Assembly (NCBI GenBank): GCA_947627505.1
Contig: CANQWG010000003.1
Coordinates: 5,504-69,503, forward strand
DNA length: 64,000 nt
Direction of reading: 5' to 3'
Source of the DNA: an uncultured Bacilli bacterium
GTDB taxonomy: Bacteria > Bacillota_I > Bacilli_A > RFN20 > CAG-449
Position numbers and translations under genes: made by a program. Position 1 is the stretch's first letter, and each line of letters begins with the position of its first letter. This document shows, one piece after another, positions 4,589 to 30,902 of the stretch. A model generated the notes under the pieces. That model was not told where the DNA came from and ran no database searches. It was given only the letters and a program-made list of their open reading frames with translations.

Positions 4589-4590
4589 TT

Positions 4591-6276: not shown

Positions 6277-6310
6277 ATACCAAATGGCAAAAGAGAACTA
6301 TTTTGATACA

Positions 6311-6360: not shown

Positions 6361-6370
6361 GCTAAAGGCA

Positions 6371-7201: not shown

Positions 7202-7225
7202 TTTAAATGATCATCACCTCAATTT

Positions 7226-8910: not shown

Positions 8911-8923
8911 AATTATTTACTCC

Positions 8924-9745
8924 TTAATAACAATCTCTTTTTGATAACACTAAGGTTCCCACTATGTTATAAATAACAGCCCAAACTAGACTTATGCCAA
9001 GACAAGTAATTAAACTGATGATATTTGATGATAAACAAGCATTCACGGATGAACCATATAAAAAGATATTTAAAATAGATGAATTCCCAACAATTGATGC
9101 TGCGCCAATGACAGGAATACCTGTTCCAAAAACAAAACATAAGGCGATAGAAATACCAAATTTTCTTCTAAAAATAATGTTAATAAAAGTATATAAACTT
9201 GCCCACCCTAAACTCATAATCATCTTGCCTAAAATGGCTAAAATAAGTGAACCAACATTTATGGTAAATGGAAGACCTGTAAAAGCACCTGAAAGAGTGC
9301 CCCCTATAAGATAAGTTATACACATACACATCATTGAAAAAGCACTAATAATGGTCTTAGACATCATATAATCTTGTTTTGTTGAATGAGTTGTAAATAA
9401 TTGTTTTACATAACCACTATGGTAATCATGTCCAATAAAGATTGAAATCATAATTCCCCCAAAAATAAAGACCATATTCATATTGGCATACTCACCAATA
9501 TTACTTATAACATACAAGGGTTTATCGGCAGCTATGATTTGCCAAGCATTAGTAAACATTCCTGCCGTTTCATTCGTATCCCCCATAGATCCCATAGAAA
9601 CTAAAGCTGGAATAATCGCAGCAATAAACAAAAAGATATAAAACAAAGGCGTATGAAATAAACGATAAAAATCGACACTTAACATTCCTTTAATCCTTTT
9701 AAAAAAAGATGGTTGTTCAAATTCTAAAGTGATTTCTTTTTCCAT
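8924..9745 (-). CDS. ABC-2 family transporter permease (paralog A)
   Basis: 273 aa polytopic membrane protein with the same architecture as 7226-8008. Confidence 0.75.
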   Translation of the reverse strand: MEKEITLEFEQPSFFKRIKGMLSVDFYRLFHTPLFYIFLFIAAIIPALVSMGSMGDTNETAGMFTNAWQIIAADKPLYVISNIGEYANMNMVFIFGGIMISIFIGHDYHSGYVKQLFTTHSTKQDYMMSKTIISAFSMMCMCITYLIGGTLSGAFTGLPFTINVGSLILAILGKMIMSLGWASLYTFINIIFRRKFGISIALCFVFGTGIPVIGAASIVGNSSILNIFLYGSSVNACLSSNIISLITCLGISLVWAVIYNIVGTLVLSKRDCY

Positions 9746-10644
9746 TATTTATTTACCTCCTTACTCATTAATTCAATATAATATTCTTCTAAACCAATTT
9801 TGTTTTGAATAATCTTACTAACTTCAAAGTGATTTGAAAGTAAAATATTCATCACTTTTTCTGTATCATCTTCATCAAAGATTTTTAAATTATTATCTAA
9901 CCTAACATCATTAAAATGTTTTTTTAAAATATTATAAGCTTCTTTATTATTATTCGTTTCAACTTCAATAAACGTCCGATTTCTTGCTTCCATTTCTTTT
10001 GCGGAAATTTCTTGAATCATTTTACCTTGACGAATAATTCCATAATGAGTTGCTATTTTTTCAAGTTCACCTAAAATATGTGATGAGATTAAAACGGTGC
10101 AATGATAATTTTTAGTAATATCCGCCAATATTTCTCGCATCATTTTCATTCCCTCAGTATCTAAACCATTGATAGGTTCATCTAAAATAAGTAAGGCTGG
10201 ATTTCCAAGTAATGCCATGGCAATACCAACTCTTTGTTTCATTCCTAAAGAACATTTTTTAAATGGAAGTTTAATGTGTTCTTCCATTTTCACAATCTTT
10301 AATACCCTATGAATTTCTTCATCAATATTTTCAATTCCTAAATTTAGTGCTTGCATTTTCAAATTAGCATAAATACTAGAGTTTGGAAAACATCCGGCAT
10401 TTTCAATTAAGGCACCTACTCTTGCTCTTACACCTGGGTCAGTATAATCTCTACCAAATAATTTAATTTCACCCTTATTTGGTACTAAGTGACCACAAAT
10501 ACATTTTTCAGTTGTTGATTTACCTGAGCCATTTTCACCTATAAATCCATAAATTGCTCCAACAGGTACAGTCATATGAAAATCATCAAGTGCATACAAA
10601 CCGCGAAAACTTTTTGATAAATTTTTTATTTCTATTGCGTTCAT
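9745..10644 (-). CDS. ABC transporter ATP-binding protein (paralog A)
   Basis: ~60 percent identical to 8008-8910 by eye (GAIYGFIGENGSGKSTTEK identical); start at MNAIEI with RBS AAAGGAG. Confidence 0.9.
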   Translation of the reverse strand: MNAIEIKNLSKSFRGLYALDDFHMTVPVGAIYGFIGENGSGKSTTEKCICGHLVPNKGEIKLFGRDYTDPGVRARVGALIENAGCFPNSSIYANLKMQALNLGIENIDEEIHRVLKIVKMEEHIKLPFKKCSLGMKQRVGIAMALLGNPALLILDEPINGLDTEGMKMMREILADITKNYHCTVLISSHILGELEKIATHYGIIRQGKMIQEISAKEMEARNRTFIEVETNNNKEAYNILKKHFNDVRLDNNLKIFDEDDTEKVMNILLSNHFEVSKIIQNKIGLEEYYIELMSKEVNK

Positions 10645-10660
10645 TGTTTCTCCTTTCAAA

Positions 10661-10748
10661 ACCACATTTGTTGTTTTTACACTAGTATTATAGTATAATT
10701 TGTTTGTAATTTACCCAACAATAAATCAAACATGTGTTGTTTTCACAA
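10661..10748. promoter_or_regulatory. divergent promoter region with two ~20-bp direct repeats (candidate TetR operators)
   Basis: ACATTTGTTGTTTTTACAC (10664-10682) and ACATGTGTTGTTTTCACAA (10729-10747); a TATAAT on each strand between them. Confidence 0.4.
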
Positions 10749-10785
10749 AAATATTATTATTCAAAACATTATACAAGGAGTAATT

Positions 10786-11373
10786 ATGGGAAAATCAGAA
10801 GTCAAATATCAAAATACATCTATTAAAATGGATAAGGCTATGTTAAAGCTATTGGAAGAAAAAGATTTTTTAGATATTAGTGTATCAGAAATTTGTATAG
10901 AAGCTGGTGTAAATAGATCTACATTTTATGATCATTATTTAAATACCAGTGATTTGTTAAAAGAAACACAAAAAGAAATTATGAAAGATTTTACTCTTTA
11001 TTTTAATAATTATTCTATTGAGTTCCCTGACTTTTCAAAAAATAATAGTGAAGAGTTTCTTTTCATATCGCCTAAATATCTAATTCCCTATTTAGAATAT
11101 GTAAAAAAACATAAAAAACTTTTTAAAACTTATTTATCTAATCTTTCTACTTTCAATGTCGATGAAGCTTATAGTGATTTATTTGAATATGTTTTGAAAC
11201 CTGTCTTTATTAGAATGGGTGTTGAGAATGATTTAATTATGAACTATATGTCAAAGTTTTACTTATCTGGTGTAACTGCAATTGTAAATGAGTGGATTAA
11301 TCGTGATTGTCAAGATGATATGTTATTTGTTGTTGAAATAATCATTGCCTGCATACCACAACAAACAAGTTAA
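10786..11373 (+). CDS. TetR/AcrR family transcriptional regulator
   Basis: HTH ISVSEICIEAGVNRSTFYDHY; start at MGKSEV with RBS AAGGAG; divergent from the ABC operon. Confidence 0.8.
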   Translation: MGKSEVKYQNTSIKMDKAMLKLLEEKDFLDISVSEICIEAGVNRSTFYDHYLNTSDLLKETQKEIMKDFTLYFNNYSIEFPDFSKNNSEEFLFISPKYLIPYLEYVKKHKKLFKTYLSNLSTFNVDEAYSDLFEYVLKPVFIRMGVENDLIMNYMSKFYLSGVTAIVNEWINRDCQDDMLFVVEIIIACIPQQTS

Positions 11374-11411
11374 TATCAAAAATTTCTTCCAAGTTAAATA
11401 CATCAAAAAAA

Positions 11412-11458
11412 GGTCCTAGAAAAATGCAACTTCGCACTTACTAAGACCTATTTTTCTT
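11412..11458 (+). terminator. hairpin plus T-run after tetR; copy 2 of the conserved hairpin element
   Basis: GGTCCTAG...CTAAGACC stem, loop AAAAATGCAACTTCGCACTTA, then TATTTTTCTTT. Confidence 0.55.
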
Positions 11459-11490
11459 TAAAACTACATAGACGTTGAGAGTCGAACTCT

Positions 11491-11543
11491 ATAAAAAACA
11501 GACTGACACCATTGCAAACTTGTTTGCATTAGTATCAATCTGG
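11491..11543 (-). terminator. compound rho-independent terminator downstream of tRNA-His
   Basis: Minus strand CAGATTGA...TCAGTCTG outer stem enclosing TGCAAACaagTTTGCA, followed by UUUUUUAU. Confidence 0.6.
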
Positions 11544-11554
11544 TTCTTTCAATA

Positions 11555-11631
11555 TGGGGCGAACGATGGGAATCGAACCCACGAGTGTCTGGTTCACAGC
11601 CAGATGTGTTAACCACTTCACCACATTCGCC
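11555..11631 (-). tRNA. tRNA-His (anticodon GUG) with encoded G-1 and 3' CCA
   Basis: Minus-strand sequence GGCGAATG...GTGGGTTCGATTCCCATCGTTCGCCCCA; anticodon loop CUGUGAA; G-1:C73 pair characteristic of tRNA-His. Confidence 0.9.
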
Positions 11632-11702
11632 ATTAGCGTTTTAATTCTAACCAAAGATAAGGTTTTTGTAAAGAGTTATTTTATCAAAAACCTAAAACGC
11701 TT

Positions 11703-12371
11703 TTATTCTGCATTGTCATTAACAAAAGAATCAAATTCGACTATGCTCTTTAATATTCCAATTACTAGCATTACATCATCTTTTTTTAATTTATCATTGC
11801 CTCTTGGAATGAAAAAATCACCACCGCGAATTACACCCACCACATTAACTTCAAACTTATTACGAACATCCATTTCAATCAAAGTCTTAGCCATATCATG
11901 CTTTAGTTTTATTTGTAGCAAACTATAATCGTTGGTTACTTTATAGTAATCAAGAACATTGTCGCTTGAAATATGGTTTGCCAAAGAAATTGCCGATGCC
12001 TCTTCTGGAATAATAGTGTCGGTAGCTCCTAAACGTTGCATTACCGATTCATATTGTTCGTCATCGACGCGAACAGTGATTTTCTTAACACCTAATTCTT
12101 TAAGGTTGATAGTCGCTAAAATTGTGGCTTGCAGATTATTGCCTATCGCCACTACGGCATGATCAATATTGCTGATTCCGATTTGTTTTAAAACATTGAT
12201 TTTAGTAGCATCACCGATCACACATGCATCTGTAAATTCATTTGCCTGTGCCACACAATCTTCATTGATATCGATCGCTAAAATATCCGCTTTCATTTCG
12301 GCTAAAGTTTTGACGATTGCTAATCCAAAGCGTCCCAATCCGATAACCATAAAACTCTTTTTAGTTTTCAT
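11703..12371 (-). CDS. ktrA: Ktr/Trk potassium uptake system NAD-binding subunit
   Basis: Rossmann motif MVIGLGRFGLAIVKTL; 222 aa with RCK_N plus RCK_C. Confidence 0.85.
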   Translation of the reverse strand: MKTKKSFMVIGLGRFGLAIVKTLAEMKADILAIDINEDCVAQANEFTDACVIGDATKINVLKQIGISNIDHAVVAIGNNLQATILATINLKELGVKKITVRVDDEQYESVMQRLGATDTIIPEEASAISLANHISSDNVLDYYKVTNDYSLLQIKLKHDMAKTLIEMDVRNKFEVNVVGVIRGGDFFIPRGNDKLKKDDVMLVIGILKSIVEFDSFVNDNAE

Positions 12372-17482: not shown

Positions 17483-18703
17483 ATGAAAAAAAGTTTTGGT
17501 ATTATTTTAATTTCTACTATTTTTTTAATAAGTTGCCAACAGGCAACAAGTGTAGAAACCAGTGGAGAATCCTCGAATAATTCAATTTCAAGTAGTGAAA
17601 TGTCCGAAGATTTCCATTCATCTAATACCTTTGAATCCGAAGATTTCAGTTCATCTGATACCTTCGAATTTGAATTTGATCGACACTATAAATCAAATTC
17701 TTGGGATGAACAACTTTTAAAAGCGATTGCCTATTTTACAGGTGAAGAAAATAGTAATCTAGTTCCGTCGGTGAATGCAGATAGCTATGAATATTACTTT
17801 ACTATTGATGAATATTCTAGCGTGGATATTCTTGTCATCAATTGTAATAATATTAATCCTGATACAGTCGTAGAAACTTATGAGAAAAGTTTAACAGCAA
17901 ATGGCTTCCAGCTAGGAGAACAACCTTATGGATTTATGGAACTCAATGTTACAGATGATTTAATGGTTCAATATGCTCTTGGAGAAACGAATCTACTCCA
18001 TCCTGATCCATATCTAGAACTGATTGTCTATACATACGCGACAAGAATGGTAGAATGGCCAAAAAATGCCATTTCTCTCATTACCGCGGAAGAAGTTCCG
18101 GAAGTGAAAGCAAAATCTTATGAAGCCATAGTAGATTATGATATTTATTATAGGCCTAGATTAGATATTATTTGTTATAATACGGATTATCGTTCTGTAA
18201 GTGAATATGAAGCAATTTTAGAAAACGCAGGTTATACCATTGAAAAAAGCATCAATCTATCGACCGCGGTAACTGAAAAAGGAACAAGAATCATGTATTC
18301 CTTTGATACTTACGATTATTCACTTACTCTATATGTCTCTAATGATTGGCCTTATGTTGATATCATGGCACTGCTAGGATTTGATCTTCCTAGATTAGAT
18401 GTAAGTGGCGCAGAATTCTCTTTCCAATATTATACTTATGATGATGGTTCAGAATCCTTAGCGTTATATTATGAGCCTGTTGCTAAATCCTCTCTTGCAA
18501 CTTACGGCTCATTACTTGAAGAGATTGAATTTAGTCAATATGGTCAAGAAACAACAGAAGTTTATAATGAAGGAACAGTAGATCAACTTACAATCACTTC
18601 AAGAGATTATCTTATGAATGAAGGGGATGAAGAAAATGAACATTGGATTCAACTCTTATATTGTGAAGAACAAAGTTCATTAGCAATCGTAATTTATTGG
18701 TAA
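17483..18703 (+). CDS. lipoprotein (paralogous family member)
   Basis: Signal peptide with lipobox LISC; RBS AAGGAGGA; Ser-rich acidic linker. Confidence 0.7.
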   Translation: MKKSFGIILISTIFLISCQQATSVETSGESSNNSISSSEMSEDFHSSNTFESEDFSSSDTFEFEFDRHYKSNSWDEQLLKAIAYFTGEENSNLVPSVNADSYEYYFTIDEYSSVDILVINCNNINPDTVVETYEKSLTANGFQLGEQPYGFMELNVTDDLMVQYALGETNLLHPDPYLELIVYTYATRMVEWPKNAISLITAEEVPEVKAKSYEAIVDYDIYYRPRLDIICYNTDYRSVSEYEAILENAGYTIEKSINLSTAVTEKGTRIMYSFDTYDYSLTLYVSNDWPYVDIMALLGFDLPRLDVSGAEFSFQYYTYDDGSESLALYYEPVAKSSLATYGSLLEEIEFSQYGQETTEVYNEGTVDQLTITSRDYLMNEGDEENEHWIQLLYCEEQSSLAIVIYW

Positions 18704-18729
18704 TAAAAATTTATGAAAGGAAAATAATT

Positions 18730-21700
18730 ATGAAAAAATGTCAAATATTTGTACTATCCGCGACAATATTAGCCTTAGTAGCATGTAATAATCCTGTACA
18801 AGAATCAACGACATCTAATAATTCTAATGATTCTAGTACACCTCTTACTTCTGAAACCTCATCTAATAGTGATGGTAATTCAAGTAATGTAGAAACATCA
18901 AGTTCTACTAATACAAGTATGACCCAAAATCAAGCATTAGCCCTATTTAATAGCGCATTACAAAAGAATTATAGTAATGTTACAATCTATAGTACAATGT
19001 ATGAAAGTGATTGGGCCGATGAATATAATACTGTTCAAACATCTGAAACCGAATTCATGAATGATGGCTATTTGTTATATTATAGTAACACATTGGCTGA
19101 AGCGGGTTATTCAGCAGAAGATTGTTATTCTTTATATTATATTGATGATCAAGATAGAAGCTATTTATATTTTGAGAGCGATTATTCTCATGCTTGTGCC
19201 GAATGGCAAGGTGGATATTTACAACAAGGATTAAGCAATGCAGATTTATCCGTTTGGATTGCATATGTATATCTTCCTCACATTTTAAAGAAACTTTCGG
19301 TAGATGTAGTAAGATATGATGCTGCTACTGGTTACTACATGGTAACTGATCAAACTGTGATCGATGCATTAAATGCTGATGGATTCGGCTTAGTTTCTTT
19401 TGATTTTGCTACTGTTGCATTAAGTATTGGTAGCAATGGTTACTTTAATCAAATCATTGCTTTAGCGGATGGTAGTACATTAGATAATCCTGAACTCTAC
19501 GTCAATGTTTCCTTGTCTAATTTTGGTACAACTGTATTTCCATCAACTTACACAATCGAACAACCATTTGCACCAGAAAATGTGAAAAGATACTATCAAA
19601 TGATGGGCTGGGAACACGATTATGAAGATGCTTATTATAATGACGCAACAGTATCTCTAAAAGACGAACAAGATAAAGATTATACTACTGGAGCACCAGA
19701 TGGTTATGATGCTATCATGAACGTAGATGATGTAATTGATTTACAATACGCCTTGACCCCTACCTCGTTTGAACCATGGCAAATCGAACATGATGCCGAA
19801 GTAGAATGGCATTGGACAAATGGAATGTTTAATAAAGTAAATGATAGTCTTTCCAATGGCAAATTTAGAGCCGTTAACACTAATGGTGGAGATGGTGAAA
19901 TTTGGGTCACATTTACCGGAGCTTATGGTGAGCAACAAACATCCAATAAAATTAAGATTAAAGTGAATGCCTTACCTGATCAAGATAAGACCGGAGCAAT
20001 CTATGACTTTAATTGGACTAATATACAATTAAATTCCGAAGGTGGAAAAGATAAAGAATTTAAGGAAATTACCGCTATTAATGAAGCGCCAAATTCTAAA
20101 GCTTTATACACCATTACTGCCGGTATGAATGTTAGTTTAATCGATGGAAGTAATGGTCAATTAGCAAATTACTTTGAATCTGGTAGACAATATTTAACCT
20201 TTAGTCCAACCGCAAACGATGCCTTGAATCATGATCGAAAAGATGATTTAATCTTCGATTTCGGTGAACAACAAGTCTCTAAGATTTCCTTCAAATATGG
20301 TTTCTTCTATGAAAATCATGCTACGAACAAAGATAAAATTAATCATGTATACATTGAAACGAAAGATGATGATCAATGGTACAAAGAAGTTCCAGTAGAA
20401 GGTAGCGGAACAAAGACCGAGCCAATCTCACCAGACGAAGCAAAATGGTATGTCGATATTGCTGACGAAATTAAAGAGAATATTTCTACAAGCTTCATGA
20501 AAACATATGAAGCCACATTTGAACCAACATCTCATGTTAGAATTGATATTCCTTTAGCAAATACTGTTGGAACACCATTACAAATTTGTATTGATTCTGT
20601 GTGTTTCTTTGCGGATGAAAATTGTCATAACTATGTTGCCCCAGAAGATCAACCTGTAACAGGCATAAATCTTACTCCCGAAACAGCAACTGTATTTGTC
20701 GGTAAACAACAAACGATCAATGCTCAAGTCTTACCTCAAGGTGCGGATAGTACATTAACATGGCATGTTGAAGAAGAAAAAGACGACATCGTTGCAGTTG
20801 AAAACGGAAAAGTCACAGGAAAAGCTCCTGGTGTTGCTAAAATATGGGCTACATCTGATAAAGGAGAAGATGGTCAAACCATCACCTCTAATCAAGTCAC
20901 AATCACCGTTGAAAATGAACCTGATTTTACTGAATATGTCGGTAAAAAATATAATGATTCACAAGTAGATGTTACCCTTACATTTGTGAATAGTAATACT
21001 ATTGCATTAGATGGTATTCAGTCTGAAAAAATTACAGCAACCATCGAAAGTGTTGTAAAAAAGAATAATGAACCTTATTACACAATGAAAATTGCTGATG
21101 ATGGAGGAACATTCCATTTAACAGTATCTAGCTCTAGTGCATTTATCACCGAATATCCGGGTTCATTGAAAACATCATATTCCTTTTCGGTAATTGGAGA
21201 GGTTAAATCTGCTTATTTAACTATGAGTGGAAATAGAGTAAATGAAGATCAAATATATGAAGTTTTCGCTAATGACGGTTCTACATATCTTACAGTTAAA
21301 CCGGACAATTCATCAGCTCCCTTTACAGTAGACGTACAATCTAGCGATTCCTCTGTAAATGTAAGTTATGAATCCAGTAACAAAACAATAACTGTTCAAT
21401 TTACTCAAGCAAATGAAGAAGTGACGCTTACTGTTACTTTAACAGACGAATATAATAATGTAACCACGATGACAGTTAAGTTCAAAGTAAAAGAAAAAGT
21501 ATACCCAACGTCTGAGGCTGATTTTGAAATTAAAACCGATAAAGATGTCAATGAAATCAAAACCGGAAATACCGTTCAATTCTCTATCAATTGGTTAAAT
21601 GACAAAATTAATCAGAACAAAGATGAAGTTACTTGGTCTGTTCAAAATGAAACTGAAGGTGGAGATCCCCTTGCTACTATTAACTCAAAAACCGGTAAAT

Positions 21701-22107
21701 TCGAAGCTATCGGCGAAGGAAATGTTATAGTCACCTGTACAGTTAAGGGTGAAGGAAGTACTACCATTTCAAAGACTATGACAATTACCATTCAAAAGAA
21801 CGACGTTGAAAATCCTACACCAGGAGACATTTGGGGAAATTATACTGGATGGGATGATTATAGTACTTACGAATTTACTTTGGATATCGATGTAAATGGG
21901 GCAACGCTGACAATTGTTGATGGTACTGGTGCATCATATCATTTTACGTTCAGTAAAAAAGATGGAAGTTACTATGAATTTACACTTGATGATGACCCAA
22001 CGGTGACTCTGTATGTTAATGATGGAGGAATGATGTTTAGCGATGATGGTGCTTATATTTATGATAAAGAAGATGCAATGTTCGGAAGTTCGGTATATTT
22101 TGATTAA
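18730..22107 (+). CDS. large surface lipoprotein with bacterial Ig-like (Big_2) domains
   Basis: Start MKKCQIF with lipobox LVAC and RBS AAAGGA; at least two Big_2-like segments (VTGINLTPETATVFVGKQQTINAQVLP..., ...TVQFSINWLN...GEGNVIVTCTV); 1125 aa. Confidence 0.7.
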   Translation: MKKCQIFVLSATILALVACNNPVQESTTSNNSNDSSTPLTSETSSNSDGNSSNVETSSSTNTSMTQNQALALFNSALQKNYSNVTIYSTMYESDWADEYNTVQTSETEFMNDGYLLYYSNTLAEAGYSAEDCYSLYYIDDQDRSYLYFESDYSHACAEWQGGYLQQGLSNADLSVWIAYVYLPHILKKLSVDVVRYDAATGYYMVTDQTVIDALNADGFGLVSFDFATVALSIGSNGYFNQIIALADGSTLDNPELYVNVSLSNFGTTVFPSTYTIEQPFAPENVKRYYQMMGWEHDYEDAYYNDATVSLKDEQDKDYTTGAPDGYDAIMNVDDVIDLQYALTPTSFEPWQIEHDAEVEWHWTNGMFNKVNDSLSNGKFRAVNTNGGDGEIWVTFTGAYGEQQTSNKIKIKVNALPDQDKTGAIYDFNWTNIQLNSEGGKDKEFKEITAINEAPNSKALYTITAGMNVSLIDGSNGQLANYFESGRQYLTFSPTANDALNHDRKDDLIFDFGEQQVSKISFKYGFFYENHATNKDKINHVYIETKDDDQWYKEVPVEGSGTKTEPISPDEAKWYVDIADEIKENISTSFMKTYEATFEPTSHVRIDIPLANTVGTPLQICIDSVCFFADENCHNYVAPEDQPVTGINLTPETATVFVGKQQTINAQVLPQGADSTLTWHVEEEKDDIVAVENGKVTGKAPGVAKIWATSDKGEDGQTITSNQVTITVENEPDFTEYVGKKYNDSQVDVTLTFVNSNTIALDGIQSEKITATIESVVKKNNEPYYTMKIADDGGTFHLTVSSSSAFITEYPGSLKTSYSFSVIGEVKSAYLTMSGNRVNEDQIYEVFANDGSTYLTVKPDNSSAPFTVDVQSSDSSVNVSYESSNKTITVQFTQANEEVTLTVTLTDEYNNVTTMTVKFKVKEKVYPTSEADFEIKTDKDVNEIKTGNTVQFSINWLNDKINQNKDEVTWSVQNETEGGDPLATINSKTGKFEAIGEGNVIVTCTVKGEGSTTISKTMTITIQKNDVENPTPGDIWGNYTGWDDYSTYEFTLDIDVNGATLTIVDGTGASYHFTFSKKDGSYYEFTLDDDPTVTLYVNDGGMMFSDDGAYIYDKEDAMFGSSVYFD

Positions 22108-22131: not shown

Positions 22132-22998
22132 ATGAAACGCATTATAGGTACTGGACTATTAATAACAACCCTATTTTTAGGGATGGGATGCACTGAGACT
22201 ATAGAAGATTCAACCGCGGTTGAATCTTCTAGTGATGCTACCACTTCAGAAGTTATTAGTGAACCCTCTTTTCTAGACAGTAAATGGGGTAGAGAGTACA
22301 ATGAAACTATCATTGGCAATTTGGGCACAGATATTCCTTATATTTCCGTTCCGAATTATGAGGTTGTAGAAAGTGAAGATGATTTCGGCGATCCTCTTAT
22401 CATCATTTATTTATACTTTGAAGAAAGTGAATTAGCTTCCAAACTAGAAGAATATGCTCTTATTTGTCAAAATGAAGGATATGTTGTATCTCTAGAACAA
22501 TCGGGATATGTAGATCCTAATAATGGAGATAGCTATACATATGATGTCTATTTTGCAGATAAAGAAATCGATGATAAACTTGGCATAGAATTACAATTTC
22601 TCGAAGGACAAAACAATGGTAAAGAATGTTTAGGTATCTTTGCATATAACTATGTTGTAGATGATCCATATGCATGGCCTACAAATTTAGTCACTTCTTT
22701 ATTAGGTCATGATGTTCCTCATCTAGAGGATGAAGGTAACTATACCTACAATGTTCACATCAATTCCGATGGCGCAGGTGGTAAATACATCGATATGATT
22801 ATTCAAGGAGTTGCGACGACCGCGGAGGAAGATTATATAACCATTCTTGAAGCAGCAGGATATCATGTTGAAAAAGATTTATATGATCCTGAAACATATG
22901 AATATATGGGAAATATGGCTTATGATAAAGATATGAGTCATGTCATTCAATTTGGTTTATCTCAATATGGACTCGAAATTTATATCTGGTTAATATAA
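22132..22998 (+). CDS. lipoprotein (paralogous family member)
   Basis: Lipobox LGMGC; shares the [EY]xxxLxxAGYxxE module with the two upstream lipoproteins. Confidence 0.7.
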   Translation: MKRIIGTGLLITTLFLGMGCTETIEDSTAVESSSDATTSEVISEPSFLDSKWGREYNETIIGNLGTDIPYISVPNYEVVESEDDFGDPLIIIYLYFEESELASKLEEYALICQNEGYVVSLEQSGYVDPNNGDSYTYDVYFADKEIDDKLGIELQFLEGQNNGKECLGIFAYNYVVDDPYAWPTNLVTSLLGHDVPHLEDEGNYTYNVHINSDGAGGKYIDMIIQGVATTAEEDYITILEAAGYHVEKDLYDPETYEYMGNMAYDKDMSHVIQFGLSQYGLEIYIWLI

Positions 22999-23132: not shown

Positions 23133-23160
23133 TAAAAACAGCATGAATAATCATGCTGCT
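23133..23160 (-). terminator. rho-independent terminator overlapping the stop codon of the 23151-23717 gene
   Basis: CAGCATGAataaTCATGCTG flanked by an A5 run on plus (U-run on minus). Confidence 0.65.
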
Positions 23161-23717
23161 TTTTCTAATTCAATTGGAGTTCCTTCAAGATAGAGATAAG
23201 TTTCATTTATGATGGTCGCATTAGGATCATCAAGTACTTCGAGAGAATAATTACCATAATTATCCCAAAATTCAATGATACACTCTTCATCGCTAGTTGC
23301 GACAAACGTAAAATAACCATTGCTTTCAGTATGATTATAATTTATCGCAGGATTTGCACTTGCTTTACGAATTAAAGATAAAGAAACATTATCATCTTCA
23401 TATACATTTGTTAAAACAATGGCATCATCTGCTATTGCTAAAGTAAAATCACTCGAAGCAATATCATAACCATTATATGTTCCTAAAATAGATTGCCACT
23501 TAGCATCCCCTTTAATTTCATCCTCTGTTTTTTCACTGGATGTTGGAGTTTCTGAAACACTTGAAGAATCAAATGGATTAAATTCTAAACTGTTCTTTGA
23601 ATCGATTAGTTCTCCTTGTACACTTTGTGATGAACTTTCGACACTTGCAATTTGTGTTTCTTGACATGAGATTAATAATAGACCTAATAGACTAAATAAG
23701 ACGATGCGTTTTTTCAT
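23151..23717 (-). CDS. lipoprotein
   Basis: Lipobox LISC; 188 aa; last gene of the MoxR-VWA operon. Confidence 0.65.
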   Translation of the reverse strand: MKKRIVLFSLLGLLLISCQETQIASVESSSQSVQGELIDSKNSLEFNPFDSSSVSETPTSSEKTEDEIKGDAKWQSILGTYNGYDIASSDFTLAIADDAIVLTNVYEDDNVSLSLIRKASANPAINYNHTESNGYFTFVATSDEECIIEFWDNYGNYSLEVLDDPNATIINETYLYLEGTPIELEKAA

Positions 23718-26296
23718 TTTCTTTTTCTCCTTTTTAAGGCTTTCAGATCGCTAAAGCGTAATTTACGAATCATGATATCTACGATGAATAAGATTACTAT
23801 GACTAAGATTAGATATAAACTAATACTATCGTAGAATCGTGAACTTGCTTCATCATAAGAGATGACATAATCATAATCTATAGCGACAATTCCGTTTTCA
23901 CCGACAATTTGATATAAAAGTTCTTCGTCGGTAGAATGAAAATAATCATATTCTTTTGAGTAAGAAAAGTCAAAATATTTCGTATCACGATATGTATTTT
24001 CTCCATTATGGTAAATTAAATCTAAAGTATATAAACCAATTTGCTCTACATTAAAGCTCATTTGATATGTAGTAACTTCATTTCTAAAGTATTTAGCTTC
24101 TTCTTTTGTGCCATCTGGATGAGTTAAAATGACCTCTAGATAGGCATTATTATTTAATAAATCAAGATTTACCGTACAATCGGCGCTATAGCCATTCGTG
24201 GATATTTCTACATCATAAATGGTCGATACTCTTTCACTCGGTTCTAGATAATGAACCATATTATTTAATAGCGCCCTTCCTCCAGAAGAGATGTATAAAT
24301 CGCTTGCCCAAGAAGAATTTAAATCACTCGTAAAGGACATCACTTTACCCTTTCCAAAATTCCAATAGGCTAATAAAGGTACTTCACGTTCACCACCTAG
24401 ATCATTTGTATAAGTGACTGTATAAATCGTCGAGGCACTTCCTTTAATTCTCGAAAAGTTGTACCCATGAATAGAAGGTAAATTAGTCACATTTTCCATC
24501 ACAGGATCATTTTGATACTTATTGTGGATTTCAAAAGTACCCTCGACACGCGTATTGGTGATTTCATCTGCGACGGATTGTAAGATGACATCGACGATAT
24601 CTTCACTTTGATTGATATAATAATAAGTTCCATTTCCCTCATTTGCTAAAGTGGATAATAAGGAGGCTCCATCTTTTGAGGAAATATTCAAGAAAGAACA
24701 AGCAATATTATTTCTTGTCATATTGTTAACAGCCATGATTAAAGCAATGGGATCATCCGCGGGTAAACCATCGGATAAGACAATGACATTCTTTGTTTCG
24801 AAATTTGCATTGCGAAGTTGCGAATCCGCTTCTAATAAACCTCCACGCATATTTGTAGCGTACGATGTTTGAATGTTATTGATTGCATTAATAATTTGTT
24901 CTCTATTTCTTGCACTTGTAAGGGGCTGAATAACATTGGTTTTGTCTCCAAAAGTGATCACAGTAACATAATCTTGTTCCCCTAGTAAATCTAAACAAGC
25001 AATCGCGCCTTCTTTAGCCTTTTGTAAACGATTTTGTTCATCCATTGATGAAGAGGCGTCAATGACTAAAGCGACGCATTTTGTATCATTTGTTTCAAAT
25101 TGCACCGGTAACATATTGTTATATTTAGACATCGTTTCAGAACTGGTACCAGAAGCATAAGTCGTGCCATATGTGACTAAAGATTTTCCATAAGTCGCCA
25201 CAACTTTTTCTAAATTCGTTACTAATTCTTCATGATGAGGTAAACCCACAATATTTGCATTTGCAAATACAAATTCATCATATTTACATAAATCTTCAAG
25301 AAGATAAGGAGTTTCCTCACGATTAAAGAAAGGATCAATCACACAATTTTCATTATAAAGAGCGGCAATGGTATTACAATCTGAATATTTATCTCCGACA
25401 ATCATCACTTTATATTCATCTACAACTTCTTGAACAAAATATTTAATATTATTTCTTTCGTCATCTTGTTCATTTCCTTTTACTTCAAGATGATAAGAAT
25501 GATTACCTTTAGTTTCCGTATTTAAAGCAAACTCAATGATATTAATTCCCTTCATTAAGCTTAAATTTTTTGTTTCTTTTACTTTATCATCTTCATAGAG
25601 GGTACATGGAACTCGCATTTGATTTCCTGCTTGAATAGAAGCTTTTACCGTTTCATTTCGATCGATATAAGTTTTATTAATATAATCTAAACTATTAATT
25701 TGGACATCATAATCATGAACTTCATGGTCTAAATAGATAGCGTCGACTTGAATATTTTTGCTTTGAATATCGATCATGGCTCTTAAAACATGATTATCTG
25801 TTTCCCCGCCATCGGAGATAAGAATCATCTTTTTAAAGACATTATCATGATACAAAGTAGAGGTATATTGAATGGCACTTTCAATATTCGTCGCACTTTT
25901 ATCTACACTAGATTCTTTAACACTTCTTAAAGCGCTGTCTAAAGGAGATAATAGTTCGTAATTTTTAGCAAAGGTTACAACACCCATCGAAGAATGATTA
26001 TCTAAATGAGCATAAATCTTTTGAATTTGTTCATCGATTTTATCTAGTTCATCGTTATTGGATTCGGAAACATCGGCAAGAACATAGACTTCACTATCTT
26101 CATTGGACTTCAAAAAGGAAACATCGACACACGCGGTAGTGATAAGTAAAGCAATAAGCAGATGAATGATTAAGGAGATAATATTCTTAGGACTCTTCTT
26201 TCCTGCTTTCATACGAATAAAGGGCACTAAGATAAGTGCTAATAAGGGAATAATTAATAAGAATAACCATGGATGAGCAAATTTAATATTGTTCAT
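23714..26296 (-). CDS. membrane-anchored protein with two von Willebrand factor A domains (Bat-like)
   Basis: BatA-like N-terminal TM region; MIDAS motifs DVSES and DASSS; 860 aa. Confidence 0.7.
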   Translation of the reverse strand: MNNIKFAHPWLFLLIIPLLALILVPFIRMKAGKKSPKNIISLIIHLLIALLITTACVDVSFLKSNEDSEVYVLADVSESNNDELDKIDEQIQKIYAHLDNHSSMGVVTFAKNYELLSPLDSALRSVKESSVDKSATNIESAIQYTSTLYHDNVFKKMILISDGGETDNHVLRAMIDIQSKNIQVDAIYLDHEVHDYDVQINSLDYINKTYIDRNETVKASIQAGNQMRVPCTLYEDDKVKETKNLSLMKGINIIEFALNTETKGNHSYHLEVKGNEQDDERNNIKYFVQEVVDEYKVMIVGDKYSDCNTIAALYNENCVIDPFFNREETPYLLEDLCKYDEFVFANANIVGLPHHEELVTNLEKVVATYGKSLVTYGTTYASGTSSETMSKYNNMLPVQFETNDTKCVALVIDASSSMDEQNRLQKAKEGAIACLDLLGEQDYVTVITFGDKTNVIQPLTSARNREQIINAINNIQTSYATNMRGGLLEADSQLRNANFETKNVIVLSDGLPADDPIALIMAVNNMTRNNIACSFLNISSKDGASLLSTLANEGNGTYYYINQSEDIVDVILQSVADEITNTRVEGTFEIHNKYQNDPVMENVTNLPSIHGYNFSRIKGSASTIYTVTYTNDLGGEREVPLLAYWNFGKGKVMSFTSDLNSSWASDLYISSGGRALLNNMVHYLEPSERVSTIYDVEISTNGYSADCTVNLDLLNNNAYLEVILTHPDGTKEEAKYFRNEVTTYQMSFNVEQIGLYTLDLIYHNGENTYRDTKYFDFSYSKEYDYFHSTDEELLYQIVGENGIVAIDYDYVISYDEASSRFYDSISLYLILVIVILFIVDIMIRKLRFSDLKALKRRKRK

Positions 26297-28112
26297 GAGC
26301 GTACACCATCCAATCTAAAATAAAGAAAATAGCCCCAAGAAGAACAATGATCATCAATTGATCGACAATCGAGGTATTTCTTATAATATTCGCATTTTCA
26401 ACAAGGGCAAAAGAAGCGTCTTTTGTCACAGTGACATAACCTTCATCTTTAGAAAATCCAACATAAATAGGATAAGTTCTGGTTTCATTTTGTGAAGTGA
26501 TTTGTACTTTATATGTACCTACTTCTTTTAAACGATAATATTCGATATTTGAATTAAAGGAGATATATTTTACATCTTCGGAAGGAGTCGTAATTCGCGC
26601 ACTTTCAAATCCTGAAGAGACATTGATTTGTAAATCATCTCCCGCGACATAATTTTTATCCTCAATGGGGCTTGGTAAAGAATAATTTAATAAATTTCTC
26701 ATCAAAGGAATAAAATCATATAGAATCGGTAGGTCACTATCATCAAGTGCAAAAGAGAAAACAACCTCTCTAGCGTTATCTTCTGTAGTACCGACAAATA
26801 ATAAAGGAACAGAATCATAACTTAAAATCGTAGTAAAGGGTTCGTATAAACTATATTTATAATATTGATATAGCATCATCTGATTTTGATGAGTTCCTTC
26901 TGTGATTTGCCTATATAAAGGACTATCCTCTCTTTGATAACGGACACTATAAGAAGGCGAAGAAACACGATGATCTTGAACTAAAAATCCTGAATGATCG
27001 ACATTTTGATCAATATTGATAAACCAAACAGAACTATTTTCCGGTAATCTAGATGGAGTATAGCTATCAAAGATATATAAATCATATTCCCCTTCAACAT
27101 AGGCTTCCGGGGCTATGATATCTAAATCATAAATTCCTATCGCGCGAATCATCGCTTGAATATAGAATGGAGACTTACTCACCAAAGCAATCTTCGATTT
27201 ATTTTTGTTCGTCAAAGGATAATAAGAATCTACATTATCTAAAGCTAAACTATCTTCATTATTAATTTTAACACTTGCTTTTTCATATGTTCTTTTTACG
27301 ACATCAAATCGGAACGGAGTTTCTATATCTTTTGTAACACTAATTTCTTGACTTCTTAATTCATTATCATCGAGTAATAAAGATAAAGATAATGTAGTAT
27401 CTTCTTCATAAGATAAAACATTTCCTTCAAAAATAAGACGATTGTTTTCTTCTTTAACCGAAAGATCATAAATCGCATAATTTTGTTCATGATTAGATAA
27501 ATTCACCCATTCAACATTATCAATATGGGTATAAGTTTTATCAGTATAAACGATTAATTTAGATATCTCCCCGTTTTGATAATAAGAAAGTGCAGTATCT
27601 AAAGCATCATCAAGCTCAATATAAGAATCTTCGGGAGTTATGCGATTGCTTAATTGATAAAAGATGTCTTTATCTTGAGTTTTTTTAACAATAGTTTGAG
27701 CCTCACTTCCGGCATAAATTAAAGTATACGTACTTCCTATTAAAGAAGAAGAAACTGTGGAATTCATTTGTTCTTTTGCCATTTCAAATCGAGATTTCCC
27801 AGCTTGAGTAATATTCATACTTCCCGAAGCATCTAAAATAAAACAAATATTCTCGGCTTGATCAGGAAGATAAAAGACAGGATGGGCTAAAGAAATCGAT
27901 AAGAATAATATAGCGATGATTTCAAAGATTAGACTTAATAAGCCTTCAAAACGACGAAGAATCTTCTTTCTTTTTAAGAATTTTTCACTTAATTCAAATA
28001 AATAAGAAGAAGATACAATATGCTCTTTATATCGATTTCTTATAATATAGATAATGATTAAAATCGGTATTCCAATTAAACCTAATAAACCCCATGGATA
28101 TAGAAAACTCAT
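26283..28112 (-). CDS. BatA-like VWA domain protein
   Basis: N-terminus MSFLYPWGLLGLIGIPILIIIYIIRNRY (aerotolerance-regulator N-terminal type); VWA MIDAS ILDASGSM. Confidence 0.75.
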   Translation of the reverse strand: MSFLYPWGLLGLIGIPILIIIYIIRNRYKEHIVSSSYLFELSEKFLKRKKILRRFEGLLSLIFEIIAILFLSISLAHPVFYLPDQAENICFILDASGSMNITQAGKSRFEMAKEQMNSTVSSSLIGSTYTLIYAGSEAQTIVKKTQDKDIFYQLSNRITPEDSYIELDDALDTALSYYQNGEISKLIVYTDKTYTHIDNVEWVNLSNHEQNYAIYDLSVKEENNRLIFEGNVLSYEEDTTLSLSLLLDDNELRSQEISVTKDIETPFRFDVVKRTYEKASVKINNEDSLALDNVDSYYPLTNKNKSKIALVSKSPFYIQAMIRAIGIYDLDIIAPEAYVEGEYDLYIFDSYTPSRLPENSSVWFINIDQNVDHSGFLVQDHRVSSPSYSVRYQREDSPLYRQITEGTHQNQMMLYQYYKYSLYEPFTTILSYDSVPLLFVGTTEDNAREVVFSFALDDSDLPILYDFIPLMRNLLNYSLPSPIEDKNYVAGDDLQINVSSGFESARITTPSEDVKYISFNSNIEYYRLKEVGTYKVQITSQNETRTYPIYVGFSKDEGYVTVTKDASFALVENANIIRNTSIVDQLMIIVLLGAIFFILDWMVYAHEQY

Positions 28113-28984
28113 TTTACAATCTCCATAGACATGAAGTCTTTAAAAAATACATCTTGCAAAGAACGCTCGACAGGAATTAATAAATATTTAGCATCCCGTA
28201 TTTCACAATAATTTTTAATTCTATTTGTGACATACTTTACGGCTTCTTGATAAGCCTCTAAAACATTTTGTGTGATATTGTTTTTATAATATCGTTCATT
28301 ATTTTCGCTATCGTAAAGAATCACTTTTCCCCTTTTCGAAGGATTTAATTCTTCTTGAGAAAGAACTTGTAAACATAAAACATCTCTTCTTTTTTCACGA
28401 AGGTGATCAATGGAATATTCATAAGGTAAGTCTGTGAGAAAATCAGAAATGATGATCGAATTTCCATCCCCATATCCCACATTTGATTTTAAAATGGCTT
28501 CCAAAAGATTACTTTCCCCTTTAAACTCCACTTCATTTAATCTATTGATATAGTTTAAATAAGAATCTTTTCCTACGACATTTTCCATGATGCCATATAA
28601 TTGATTTTCTTGAACATAATAAATCGATACTTTGTCCATGTATTTGATAGATAAATAAGCAAGTGACGCGGCAAGTTCTAACGCTCTTATGCCTTTAGAA
28701 AAATAACCCATCGACGCGGAGGCATCAACATAGATTTTTGTATGTAATTGTCTTTCGTCTAAAAAGAGCTTTAAAAAGAGATTATCGGTACGCGCAAAAA
28801 CACTCCAGTCGATTTTACTGACATCATCTCCAGGAATATATTCCCTATAATCAGCGAATTCTACTGAGGAACCATAACTTTTTGTCTTATGATTTCCTCC
28901 AAATCTTCCTTGAATGATATCGTGTATTGATAACTGCAGTAATTCGATTTGCTCTAAGAATTGATCATCGATAATCTGCTTCAT
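28109..28984 (-). CDS. DUF58 domain protein (MoxR-associated, VWA-like)
   Basis: SSVEFADYREYIPGDDVSKIDWSVFART plus YVDASASM. Confidence 0.8.
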   Translation of the reverse strand: MKQIIDDQFLEQIELLQLSIHDIIQGRFGGNHKTKSYGSSVEFADYREYIPGDDVSKIDWSVFARTDNLFLKLFLDERQLHTKIYVDASASMGYFSKGIRALELAASLAYLSIKYMDKVSIYYVQENQLYGIMENVVGKDSYLNYINRLNEVEFKGESNLLEAILKSNVGYGDGNSIIISDFLTDLPYEYSIDHLREKRRDVLCLQVLSQEELNPSKRGKVILYDSENNERYYKNNITQNVLEAYQEAVKYVTNRIKNYCEIRDAKYLLIPVERSLQDVFFKDFMSMEIVK

Positions 28985-28986
28985 AA

Positions 28987-29970
28987 TTAATGACCTTTTT
29001 TATTCTCTTGGATTAATAAAGAAATCACCTCATCACAAGATAGATGTTCATTAATCGCATTGTAGTTAATCTTAATACGATGTCTTAATATAGGATAACA
29101 AAGAGCATCGATATCTTCATAACTTACATTAAATCTTTCTTCGATTAAGGCTCTGATTTTTGCCGTGGTAATTAAGGCTTGACCCGCGCGAGGGGACGCG
29201 CCATAACGGATATATTTTTTTGCCACTTCCGAAGTATCTTTTAATTCAGGGTGACTAGAAGAAACTAATTTCATGGCATATGTGACAATTTCAGGAAGAA
29301 CCGGGACGTCTTTTGCTAATGCCCTCATTGCTAAAATGGTTGGTCCATCGATAATTTTCGTCGCAACTTCATCCATCGTAACTTGTGTCATATTGACGAT
29401 GTTTTCAAGCTCTTCATTGCTAGGAAATTCCATGACTAATTTAAACATGAAGCGGTCCATTTGGGCTTCCGGTAAAGGATAAGTACCATCTTGTTCGATG
29501 GGGTTTTCTGTTGCCATAACAAAGAAGGGTTCATCAATTTTATAAGTTTGATTTGAAACCGTGACACTATGCTCTTGCATGACTTCGAGTAAAGCAGATT
29601 GTGTTTTAGGGGTTGCTCTATTGATTTCATCGGCAAGAATTAAATTTGCAAAGACGGGTCCTTTTTGGAATCTTGTATTGAGTTTTCCTTGTTCATCTTT
29701 TTCGATGATATTCATACCGATTAAATCTGATGGCATTAAATCTGGCGTAAATTGAATTCTCGAGAAAGGTAAACTTAAAGTTTGACTTAAAGAACGAACT
29801 AGACGAGTTTTACCAACGCCTGGAACACCTTCAAGAAGAACATTACCTCCTGCGAGAATCGCGATAATGACATTATCGATTACCTCTTCTTGACCGACGA
29901 CATCCTTATGGACTTCTTCTTTGATCTTTTTGACTAATGTTGCAAATTCACTGATTTCTAATTCCTTCAT
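28987..29970 (-). CDS. MoxR family AAA+ ATPase
   Basis: VVGQEEVIDNVIIAILAGGNVLLEGVPGVGKT Walker A, 327 aa. Confidence 0.9.
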   Translation of the reverse strand: MKELEISEFATLVKKIKEEVHKDVVGQEEVIDNVIIAILAGGNVLLEGVPGVGKTRLVRSLSQTLSLPFSRIQFTPDLMPSDLIGMNIIEKDEQGKLNTRFQKGPVFANLILADEINRATPKTQSALLEVMQEHSVTVSNQTYKIDEPFFVMATENPIEQDGTYPLPEAQMDRFMFKLVMEFPSNEELENIVNMTQVTMDEVATKIIDGPTILAMRALAKDVPVLPEIVTYAMKLVSSSHPELKDTSEVAKKYIRYGASPRAGQALITTAKIRALIEERFNVSYEDIDALCYPILRHRIKINYNAINEHLSCDEVISLLIQENKKGH

Positions 29971-30902
29971 AGCATTCTCCTTTTTATTGCCTTTTGCGGC
30001 TCACTATTTCCTTCGTTATTTTTACTTTGATCGTATAATGATTTAAAGTAATCATCTAAAATATCTTCAAGATCATCGGGGATATTTCCTTGTATTTCAC
30101 CTTCGACGATTTGATTATAATAATCATCTAAAACATCGCCAAGTTCTGTAAATCCGTCTTTAGTAAAGACATGACCATCGCCATATTGGGTTTCTCCATC
30201 TCCGCTTTGTATGGAATTTGAAGAATCCGAGTTTTGGCTTGCACTATCGATATCCCCTGAATCAATTTCACTAGTTTCTCCAGATTCTACACTAGTTAAA
30301 TCTCCGCTTTCAATTCCTGAATCGCTTCCTTGTTCTCCACCTTGCATTGAAGTTGAATCACTAGTCACTATGCTTGTATCGATGGAGCTTGGATCAAGTG
30401 AACTATTCGAGTTAGGATCCTCTTTAAAGGGGGAATTAGGATTTAAAGGAATGAAAAAAGATCCTCCAACAATTAAAAGTGCTATAACTAAAGAAATATA
30501 ATAACCAATAGGAATCACAATCGGTAATTCTTTAGTATCGCAATTCAGTAAAGATAGCTTTGTATCTTCTTTTTGCTTAATTAAGATTTCATTGTCATTT
30601 GATGGATATTCCACCATCGTTTGAGTTTTTTCTTTTAAATGGTATGTTTCATCAAGTCTTTTAGCAATGCTTTTTTCATCTGGTTGATGATTAAAATATA
30701 GTAAGCAAACAAATATAGCAGAAGAACTTAAGAAAATCAAAATATAAAAGATAAAAAATAAATCGATCCCGATTAATTTAAAGGCACCAAAAATAAGAGC
30801 AGTAAAAATAGCGCCGAGAGAATCCCCTAATATCAGTGCTTTAATTAAATGTTCGAGTAAAATTTTCTTGCTAAACTTTTTAAATTCTTCTTTCATATCC
30901 AC
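29967..30902 (-). CDS. membrane protein with Ser/Asp/Gly/Glu-rich acidic tail (first gene of the MoxR operon)
   Basis: Three predicted TM segments then low-complexity SDSG/ESG repeats; 4-nt overlap with moxR. Confidence 0.5.
   Translation of the reverse strand: MDMKEEFKKFSKKILLEHLIKALILGDSLGAIFTALIFGAFKLIGIDLFFIFYILIFLSSSAIFVCLLYFNHQPDEKSIAKRLDETYHLKEKTQTMVEYPSNDNEILIKQKEDTKLSLLNCDTKELPIVIPIGYYISLVIALLIVGGSFFIPLNPNSPFKEDPNSNSSLDPSSIDTSIVTSDSTSMQGGEQGSDSGIESGDLTSVESGETSEIDSGDIDSASQNSDSSNSIQSGDGETQYGDGHVFTKDGFTELGDVLDDYYNQIVEGEIQGNIPDDLEDILDDYFKSLYDQSKNNEGNSEPQKAIKRRML

Follow-up and report, generated by a model that had tools for sequence, protein, structure and literature searches.

We have identified a sharply conserved five-gene version of the MoxR-DUF58-VWA operon that is common in uncultured gut Bacillota. 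It was found at positions 23151-30902, on the minus strand, of a 64,000-nucleotide (nt) stretch of contig CANQWG010000003.1 from an uncultured Bacilli bacterium; this whole stretch is referred to below as the window. The conserved unit comprises five genes, which encode a membrane protein that we call the head, a MoxR ATPase, a DUF58 protein and two paralogous proteins with von Willebrand factor A (VWA) domains, and in the window a lipoprotein gene follows them. Since the five genes form a fixed cassette and the surface lipoproteins that attend it change, its most probable task is to build or control a metal-dependent scaffold of proteins outside the membrane. We give about even odds (a probability of roughly 0.5) to the fuller reading that the locus is a Bacillota-specific version of an MRP-type MoxR system, in which MoxR and DUF58 remodel an outward-facing membrane complex of VWA domains bearing metal ion-dependent adhesion sites (MIDAS) and thereby control surface lipoproteins.

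Few bacterial gene clusters that lack an agreed function are as widespread as the MoxR-DUF58-VWA operons, and the phenotypes reported for these operons since 1999 conflict. The kind of system is already known, nothing in the present locus is categorically new, and its carriers are mostly uncultured. What the five-gene version offers is a set of testable handles: a large unannotated family of membrane proteins that always leads the operon; a paralogous VWA pair, within a system that has four invariant MIDAS motifs, three of them predicted to be extracellular; and recurrent, changing surface lipoproteins, with one domain common to the operon lipoprotein and a neighbouring giant.

The five-gene core and its operon

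The double-VWA protein has at least 262 protein-database matches, mostly full length at 860-950 amino acids (aa), and 250 relatives were confirmed among GTDB species genomes. For 83 loci, open reading frames (ORFs) were called and then labelled by means of profiles derived from the proteins of the window. The order head, MoxR, DUF58, BatA-VWA protein (~610-650 aa) and double-VWA protein (~860-950 aa) was invariant in the labelled loci, and all five genes were present in 59 of the 62 loci that had enough upstream DNA. An identical core was seen on three distant metagenome contigs with independent gene calls and precomputed Pfam annotation. Carriers are metagenome-assembled genomes (MAGs) from the gut that belong to Bacilli (RF39-like Scatosoma, Enterosoma), Erysipelotrichales, Anaeroplasmataceae and Clostridia (Oscillospiraceae, Christensenellaceae, Borkfalkiaceae, Ruminococcus, Coproplasma). 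The first-pass annotation of the window had described the head, the double-VWA protein and the lipoprotein as additions to a MoxR-DUF58-VWA triad. Their order in these 59 loci makes the head and the double-VWA protein core genes rather than local additions, and the description fits only the terminal lipoprotein, which is lineage-specific and whose family consists of 6 clusters.

Four genomes carry two copies of the cassette (L022, L023, L025 and L026 against L018, L016, L014 and L015). The second copy keeps the head, DUF58 and both VWA genes and is without moxR, with a spacing of about 50-70 nt between head and DUF58 genes. Every cassette that contains MoxR retains the moxR-DUF58 adjacency, and MoxR identity is 72-77 % among cassettes whose double-VWA proteins share 30-37 %. 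The MoxR-less second copies and the higher conservation of MoxR suggest a division of labour between a shared ATPase engine and cassette-specific DUF58 adaptors, so that one MoxR may serve both cassettes of such a genome.

In the window, the operon consists of six consecutive ORFs that fill the interval, and the ORF listing reproduced exactly the coordinates reported in the first-pass annotation. The genes and their flanking signals are as follows:

29967-30902, minus strand: g1, head; 311 aa from a GTG, the gene callers' start being the likelier ATG at 30896 (309 aa)
28987-29970, minus strand: g2, MoxR; 327 aa
28109-28984, minus strand: g3, DUF58 protein; 291 aa
26283-28112, minus strand: g4, BatA-VWA protein; 609 aa
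23714-26296, minus strand: g5, double-VWA protein; 860 aa
23151-23717, minus strand: g6, lipoprotein; 188 aa
30951-30978, minus strand: promoter-like site TTGAAA-16 nt-(TG)TATAAT, with an 11/12 consensus match and an extended -10 element, ~50 nt upstream of g1
23133-23158, both strands: bidirectional intrinsic-terminator-like GC hairpin CAGCATGA-loop-TCATGCTG, with T-runs on both strands, overlapping the g6 stop codon

All five junctions are tight. The 4-nt overlaps previously ascribed to the whole operon occur at three of them (g1/g2, g3/g4 and g5/g6), while g4 and g5 overlap by 14 nt and g2 and g3 are separated by a 2-nt gap. The overlap of g5 and g6 suggests translational coupling. The promoter-like site ahead of g1, a consensus match only, had the top score in the region, where promoter-like sites in total showed no excess over shuffled sequence. 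Tight junctions, one strong promoter-like site and one terminator agree with the operon structure proposed earlier, and on these signals g1-g6 would form a real operon. Independent assemblies of the organism have the identical six genes called, and the nearest genome is a rabbit-gut MAG, uncultured Bacilli bacterium Lapin-002__bin95, at 98 % identity. An Rfam scan found nothing inside the operon. TypA was considered as a divergent partner and dropped, as the upstream neighbour differs among relatives.

Several cassette contigs lie in bins with Bacteroidota names, namely L015 and L026 (Alistipes onderdonkii), L041 (Bacteroides uniformis) and L021 (Prevotellaceae); their cassettes agree in gene order, and almost exactly in gene lengths, with cassettes from bins named only 'bacterium', as a comparison of L015 with L016 shows. 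These carriers are probably mis-binned or mislabelled MAGs rather than cases of cross-phylum transfer. In L005 (a JGI 3300042975 contig, Bacilli MAG), the head is split into 189 + 325 aa and DUF58 into 228 + 79 aa, which are frameshifts or assembly errors; the cassette is flanked there by a phage-type integrase and an AbiH gene.

Domains and predicted topology of the core proteins

In g4, Pfam detected BatA (E 1.9e-9, 38.3 bits against a cut-off of 25.9) and VWA_2 (E 3.6e-11), in agreement with the BatA-type N-terminus and VWA domain first assigned to it. The protein starts with a BatA-type N-terminal transmembrane (TM) hairpin, continues with a VWA domain whose MIDAS motif, DASGS, lies at residue 94, and ends with an ectodomain and a C-terminal TM anchor. 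Two VWA stretches are present in g5 (VWA_2 E 1.4e-26), and both bear the MIDAS motif that had been read from the sequence. An AlphaFold2 model of g5 from a 20-sequence alignment had a mean predicted local distance difference test score (pLDDT) of 84. Its N-terminal half contains a TM hairpin (residues 9-57), VWA1 (59-190), a beta-sandwich (198-272) and an alpha/beta domain (284-400), followed in the C-terminal half by VWA2 (406-575), a continuation of the alpha/beta part (583-690), a second beta-sandwich (695-777), a TM helix (826-845) and a K/R-rich cytoplasmic tail. Residues 592-684 have a slightly sub-threshold match to GATase1_like (26.6 against 27 bits), and the 583-690 part corresponds to the C-terminal half of that family; the Pfam coordinates and the model together suggest that VWA2 is inserted within a GATase1-like domain. 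Foldseek searches with the model returned VWA proteins, including BatB (3ibs) and the aerotolerance-related 4jdu of B. fragilis, and also ITIH1, the mussel byssus protein PTMP1 and integrin I-domains.

Profile-profile alignment placed g4 residues 2-315 on g5 residues 5-304 (98.8 %) and g4 residues 469-603 on g5 residues 675-843 (90 %). The resemblance of the g5 N-terminal membrane region to that of g4, already suspected, is thereby borne out, despite the absence of a Pfam BatA match in g5. By these alignments g4 and g5 are evidently paralogs with large ectodomains, and g5 can be regarded as a g4-like scaffold plus an extra central VWA module. Four DxSxS MIDAS motifs (DUF58 D87, g4 D94, g5 D75 and g5 D413) are invariant in 36-41 homologs.

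The topologies of g1, g4 and g5 were predicted from hydropathy, the positive-inside rule and analogy to BB0173, a BatA-like protein of Borrelia for which three TM helices and a periplasm-facing VWA domain were established by experiment (PMC5700661). Both VWA proteins are predicted to have the N-terminus outside, a TM segment, a short K/R-rich cytoplasmic loop (residues 25-50 in g4 and 28-38 in g5), a second TM segment, an ectodomain (511 aa in g4 and 767 aa in g5), a third TM segment and the C-terminus inside. The positively charged loops between the first two TM segments, and the g5 tail (844-860) with 10 K/R among its 17 residues, would place the 511- and 767-aa bodies outside the membrane.

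The MoxR and DUF58 assignments of the first reading were upheld by Pfam. The g2 protein matches AAA_3 (E 1.5e-61, 206 bits against a cut-off of 27) and AAA_lid_2 (E 8.7e-15), and its closest solved structure is 2r44 (E 8.8e-75). It also matches bpMoxR (E 4e-17), far less strongly than AAA_3, and scores 22 bits against a cut-off of 681 with the RavA model NF010054; there was no ViaA match. The MRP subfamily is defined by the criteria of Snider & Houry 2006, as summarised in PMC12067865, and a MoxR with AAA_3 and lid, an adjacent DUF58 gene and VWA proteins in the operon are all found here. These features identify g2 as a MoxR-class AAA+ ATPase of the MRP type with a predicted cytoplasmic location. 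DUF58 was detected in g3 (E 7.4e-30), which begins 2 nt downstream of moxR, has no hydrophobic segment and is predicted to be cytoplasmic; all 36 homologs compared retain its DASAS (DxSxS) motif, at residue 87, unchanged. Neither MoxR nor DUF58 has an export signal.

The head was correctly described as a protein with three TM segments and an acidic low-complexity tail: three hydrophobic segments are present in g1, and D+E outnumber K+R by 35 to 8 in its 165-aa tail. Its predicted topology is N-in, with two TM segments, a 59-aa cytoplasmic loop (69-127), a third TM segment and an acidic S/D/G-rich ectodomain. An exhaustive profile search recovered 1395 cluster representatives at E <= 1e-3, of which 922 (clusters at 50 % identity) had E <= 1e-10; among the best 150 of the 1395 matches, members are mostly 470-520 aa long. 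The family has a conserved ~160-aa N-terminal module with three TM segments and the loop motif AKRLD..L.EKVQTM..QRED, a variable acidic or helical middle, and a conserved C-terminal motif of ~60 aa, YGS.D.VY...YGDVI..Y.....L...YF..LY, which is given for g1 as the pattern YG..D.V....YGDV..DYY....L..YF..LY. The window protein is a short form, in which S/D/G low complexity replaces the ~200-aa helical middle of typical members. Head homologs hold the first cassette position in 69-72 loci.

No Pfam or NCBIfam family matched g1. Seven of 22 head N-terminal modules match DUF4175 (PF13779) faintly, with a best E of 7e-4, and in one case head residues 16-96 align to profile positions 18-98 of 825. With full-length head homologs, 2 of 95 reach E <= 0.01 and none reaches the 27.3-bit cut-off. 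Kinship with DUF4175 is not claimed on these faint minority matches. Matches to LPG_synthase_TM (32 of 95, all below the cut-off) look like an effect of TM composition.

The partner lipoproteins

The gene after the double-VWA gene encodes a lipoprotein in at least 48 of 77 phylogenetically related loci, compared with 9.2 % of other ORFs there (odds ratio 16). Lipidation was predicted throughout from the lipobox pattern [LVI][ASTVI][GAS]C. Depending on the clade, the partner role is taken by members of different lipoprotein families, at least four in number and unrelated to one another. The most frequent pairing consists of a ~520-aa family, found in 42 loci and usually starting -3 to +16 nt from the stop codon of the double-VWA gene, and a ~900-aa family that accompanies it in 38 loci. 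A ~1100-aa family lies upstream of the head gene in 16 loci, and the clade of the window (six loci) has the ~180-aa lipoprotein represented by g6 together with three convergent lipoprotein genes. Members of the ~900-aa family are found two genes downstream of the double-VWA gene (L006, L040, L047, L050, L056, L062 and others) and have a conserved His/Trp/Cys-rich segment, HTHTY..WS.D...HWHAA.C, right after the lipobox; the family has no Pfam match, and the residues of this segment could constitute a metal-binding module.

The terminal lipoprotein of the window was correctly recognized as such. g6 has the lipobox LLISC, a disordered S-rich linker with the motif G.L.[DN]S.NS.EF[ND]PF and a beta-rich C-terminal domain of ~115 aa, and no Pfam or NCBIfam family matched it. 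Its AlphaFold2 model, made from 6 sequences, is poor (pLDDT 57), and Foldseek with this model returned nothing below E 0.02, a lipocalin or SP_0198-like fold being a faint hint only.

The three convergent genes form an island on the opposite strand:

17483-18703, plus strand: 406-aa lipoprotein, first gene of the island; lipobox LISC; conserved with the cassette in the six clade loci
18697-22107, plus strand: Big_2 lipoprotein, 1136-aa ORF (Big_2 E 3e-10); lipobox LVAC; likely ~1125 aa from the ATG at 18730
22132-22998, plus strand: 288-aa lipoprotein; lipobox GMGC; beside the cassette in L004, L007 and L010-L012, with differing outer flanks

The mechanical TTG start at 18697 overlaps the 406-aa gene and the signal peptide begins at the ATG at 18730, so the true genes are probably ~26 nt apart. 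The 406-aa and 288-aa proteins are paralogs (hhalign 90-98 %) without a Pfam match, and both are very acidic, with 71 and 54 D+E against 19 and 11 K+R, respectively.

Homology links the C-terminal domain of g6 with the last ~105 aa of the 1136-aa protein (hhalign 98.3 %, E 2.5e-14, with signal peptide and linker trimmed). The same pair shares 48 % identity over 136 aa in L010 (E 1e-36) and 28 % in L004 (E 2e-7), and the two window proteins give a weak signal when compared directly (E 0.14). We interpret the g6 domain as a free-standing copy of the C-terminal domain of the large lipoprotein. In L010 (12587-13832), the small lipoprotein after the double-VWA gene is tandemly duplicated (171 and 178 aa). 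Its second copy and the C-terminus of the 1084-aa lipoprotein next to it are 48 % identical, which points to a domain duplication or a gene conversion event of recent date. Among the accessory families at large, most hhalign matches that might have indicated remote homology were lost after signal peptides and linkers were trimmed; the two relations that survived are those of g6 with the 1136-aa C-terminus and of the 406-aa with the 288-aa protein.

The convergent island stays beside the cassette in L004 and L010-L012 while the outer flanks change, ribosomal protein S20 and DNA polymerase III delta replacing the TypA and RNase J of the window. This retained adjacency, with the domain common to g6 and the island, strengthens the surface or envelope function that the first-pass annotation had considered plausible.

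Proposed mechanism, related systems and alternative explanations

The head, g4 and g5 would assemble as a complex in the cytoplasmic membrane with three MIDAS sites facing outward. MIDAS sites bind extended, usually acidic peptides (PMC7159879). Candidates for such binding are the head, through its acidic stalk and its C-terminal knob, and the partner lipoproteins, through linker motifs or docking domains. On the cytoplasmic side, DUF58, which is itself VWA-like and has a MIDAS motif, would serve as co-chaperone to a MoxR hexamer and may contact the membrane subunits at their cytoplasmic loops and tails, which are short and conserved. Hydrolysis of ATP would then assemble or remodel the complex and in this way control the maturation, retention or presentation of surface lipoproteins. 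Such a scheme is consistent with the maturation and remodelling of dedicated complexes by MoxR and VWA co-chaperones (PMC7159879, PMC9976466) and with the chaperoning of an exported envelope enzyme, RipA, by the MRP-type MoxR1 of M. tuberculosis (PMC12067865). If the link to the lipoproteins is physical, the system would represent a new mode of surface organisation in wall-poor or monoderm gut bacteria, with bearing on host interaction and on the annotation of MAG proteomes. A more daring variant is an 'inside-out', ATP-driven surface-display machine, in which MoxR-DUF58 toggles the g4 and g5 MIDAS sites between open and closed states in an integrin-like manner to catch, hold and release lipoproteins, with the head stalk as a pseudo-ligand. 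We regard this variant as speculative and unlikely; were it true, Bat/MRP-type MoxR operons would gain a general function, the regulated metal-dependent tethering of surface proteins.

Several points weigh against the control of surface lipoproteins by MoxR-DUF58 remodelling. The evidence on the cassette comes from sequence and structure models, and force from a cytoplasmic AAA+ ring would somehow have to be transmitted across loops of 11-59 residues. The loci are phylogenetically related and not independent, so the nominal p-value overstates the lipoprotein enrichment. The accessory lipoproteins are unrelated between clades and may be neighbours of convenience in lipoprotein-rich genomes, and L005, L014 and some other loci have no adjacent same-strand lipoprotein. 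Phenotypes of Bat-like loci are also discordant, with aerotolerance in Bacteroides, none in Leptospira and envelope defects in Rhizobium (PMC5700661).

The closest known systems are the Bat operons (Bacteroides BatI, Leptospira bat, Borrelia bb0170-bb0176), which likewise combine an MRP-type MoxR, DUF58 and a BatA hairpin with VWA and MIDAS. In Bat-like loci, too, the VWA domain faces away from the cytoplasm, by experiment for BB0173 and by prediction here, and their role is envelope-related in current thinking. The Bat/aerotolerance-type architecture originally proposed for the locus therefore holds as kinship of the MoxR-DUF58-VWA triad, with g4, and g5 through its N-terminal alignment to g4, as the BatA/BatB-type proteins; both are 2-3 times longer than BatA and BatB. 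It does not extend to a canonical Bat operon, since BatC, BatD and BatE are absent: Pfam found no TPR or SH3 domain (BatC/BatE) in the six proteins, their neighbours or, from precomputed annotation, the three distant relatives, and no BatD family in the operon, its neighbours or the relatives checked. In contrast to the ~330-aa VWA proteins of Bat, those described here have 609 and 860 aa, and the parts not seen in Bat are beta-sandwich and alpha/beta domains, a further VWA domain and an anchor at the C-terminus; a head with three TM segments and an acidic stalk opens the operon, lineage-specific lipoproteins attend it, and the hosts are monoderm Bacillota.

The operon RL3499-RL3502 of Rhizobium leguminosarum, of a widely conserved type, likewise has MoxR and DUF58 followed by membrane proteins, the last genes reportedly encoding BatA_N and a DUF4175-like low-complexity membrane protein, which would make them similar to g4 and the head. 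Gene order differs from the present cassette, where the head comes first, and the similarity of the head to DUF4175 is faint. We know of no lipoprotein partners and no double-VWA paralog in that operon. The phenotype of its mutants, which affects envelope and cell morphology, points to envelope integrity according to PMC5700661 and agrees with a surface role here. MoxR and DUF58 also stand beside a membrane protein in M. tuberculosis moxR1-Rv1480-Rv1481, the PFNA cluster of Bifidobacterium and B. subtilis yeaC-yeaD-yebA. The third gene of those operons, however, encodes a single small VWA or transglutaminase-type membrane protein, and they are without a head and without the giant VWA pair; unlike in yeaC-yeaD-yebA and PFNA, Pfam found no transglutaminase, FN3 or kinase domain in the operon proteins. 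Literature searches turned up no earlier account of this cassette in Bacillota, of the head family or of an association with lipoproteins.

Among the alternatives, a Bat-equivalent function would have MoxR/DUF58-driven VWA proteins guard strict anaerobes against oxygen or oxidative stress, for example by keeping a reduced extracytoplasmic face, and would make the lipoproteins irrelevant. The triad held in common with Bat, the superposition of the g5 VWA domains on BatB 3ibs and B. fragilis 4jdu and the fact that all carriers are gut anaerobe MAGs speak for it, but it has to do without BatC, BatD and BatE and without any redox domain, and it leaves the consistent lipoprotein partners and the head unexplained. 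The aerotolerance role also failed to reproduce in Leptospira and was never proven at the level of mechanism (PMC3557215, PMC5700661). We consider this function improbable. Similarly doubtful is the proposal that g4 and g5 are MIDAS-dependent adhesins for host, mucus or other cells, inserted or folded with the aid of MoxR/DUF58, with lipoproteins that are merely co-regulated. Large ectodomains with three invariant MIDAS sites, the structural resemblance of g5 to ITIH1, PTMP1 and integrin I-domains, the binding of integrin alpha3beta1 by BB0172 from the Bat-like locus of Borrelia and the host association of all carriers fit an adhesin. Anchoring of both ends in the cytoplasmic membrane, however, would keep the ectodomains beneath or within the cell wall rather than projecting from it, and strict co-conservation of the head and domain sharing between g6 and the large lipoprotein would go unexplained.

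A sensing or signalling role, possibly in a conflict system, in which the lipoproteins are diversifying sensors and the MoxR/VWA core transduces inward, appears quite unlikely. MoxR-vWA ternary conflict systems and the Esr pathway likewise couple MoxR and VWA to variable, partly surface-exposed components, and their general logic, an ATP-driven reorganisation of a VWA-bound complex, is that of the mechanism proposed here. A conserved core with fast-changing surface partners from unrelated families, the bpMoxR match of g2 and an actinobacterial precedent of MoxR and vWA with cell-surface sensor proteins (bioRxiv 10.64898/2026.09.08.750141; PMC7159879) would suit such a role. Here, by contrast, DUF58 is present, and the VWA domains are predicted to be extracellular and are not effector-fused cytoplasmic co-chaperones. 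The third components that define ternary systems (VMAP, iSTAND, double FtsH-type AAA+, beta-propeller; Kaur et al. 2020, PMC7159879) were absent from Pfam scans of the operon, its neighbours and the relatives checked, as were kinase, FHA and effector domains. The AAA_3 match of g2 far exceeds its bpMoxR match. PADLOC was negative beyond generic AAA+ similarity, and a defence-system reading was rejected on that result. The type of accessory lipoprotein also tracks the ranking of core similarity, which suggests vertical inheritance over shuffling and counts against diversifying sensors. Metal-cofactor insertion or enzyme maturation of the NorQ/NorD, CbbQ/CbbO or CoxD/CoxE kind, with the client encoded elsewhere, is very unlikely. 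It is the best-documented activity of MoxR with VWA proteins (PMC9976466), and g5 and MoxR have weak cobaltochelatase or Mg-chelatase-like matches, but these fall far short of the family cut-offs, no enzyme that might be the client is conserved beside the cassette in ~80 loci, and prediction puts the VWA domains outside the cytoplasm in proteins with membrane anchors at both ends.

With respect to the window as a whole, G+C content is 26-30 % at positions 1-12000 and 31-40 % in the remainder, and GC skew is negative across nearly the entire stretch. A single tRNA gene is present, at 11558-11630 on the minus strand.

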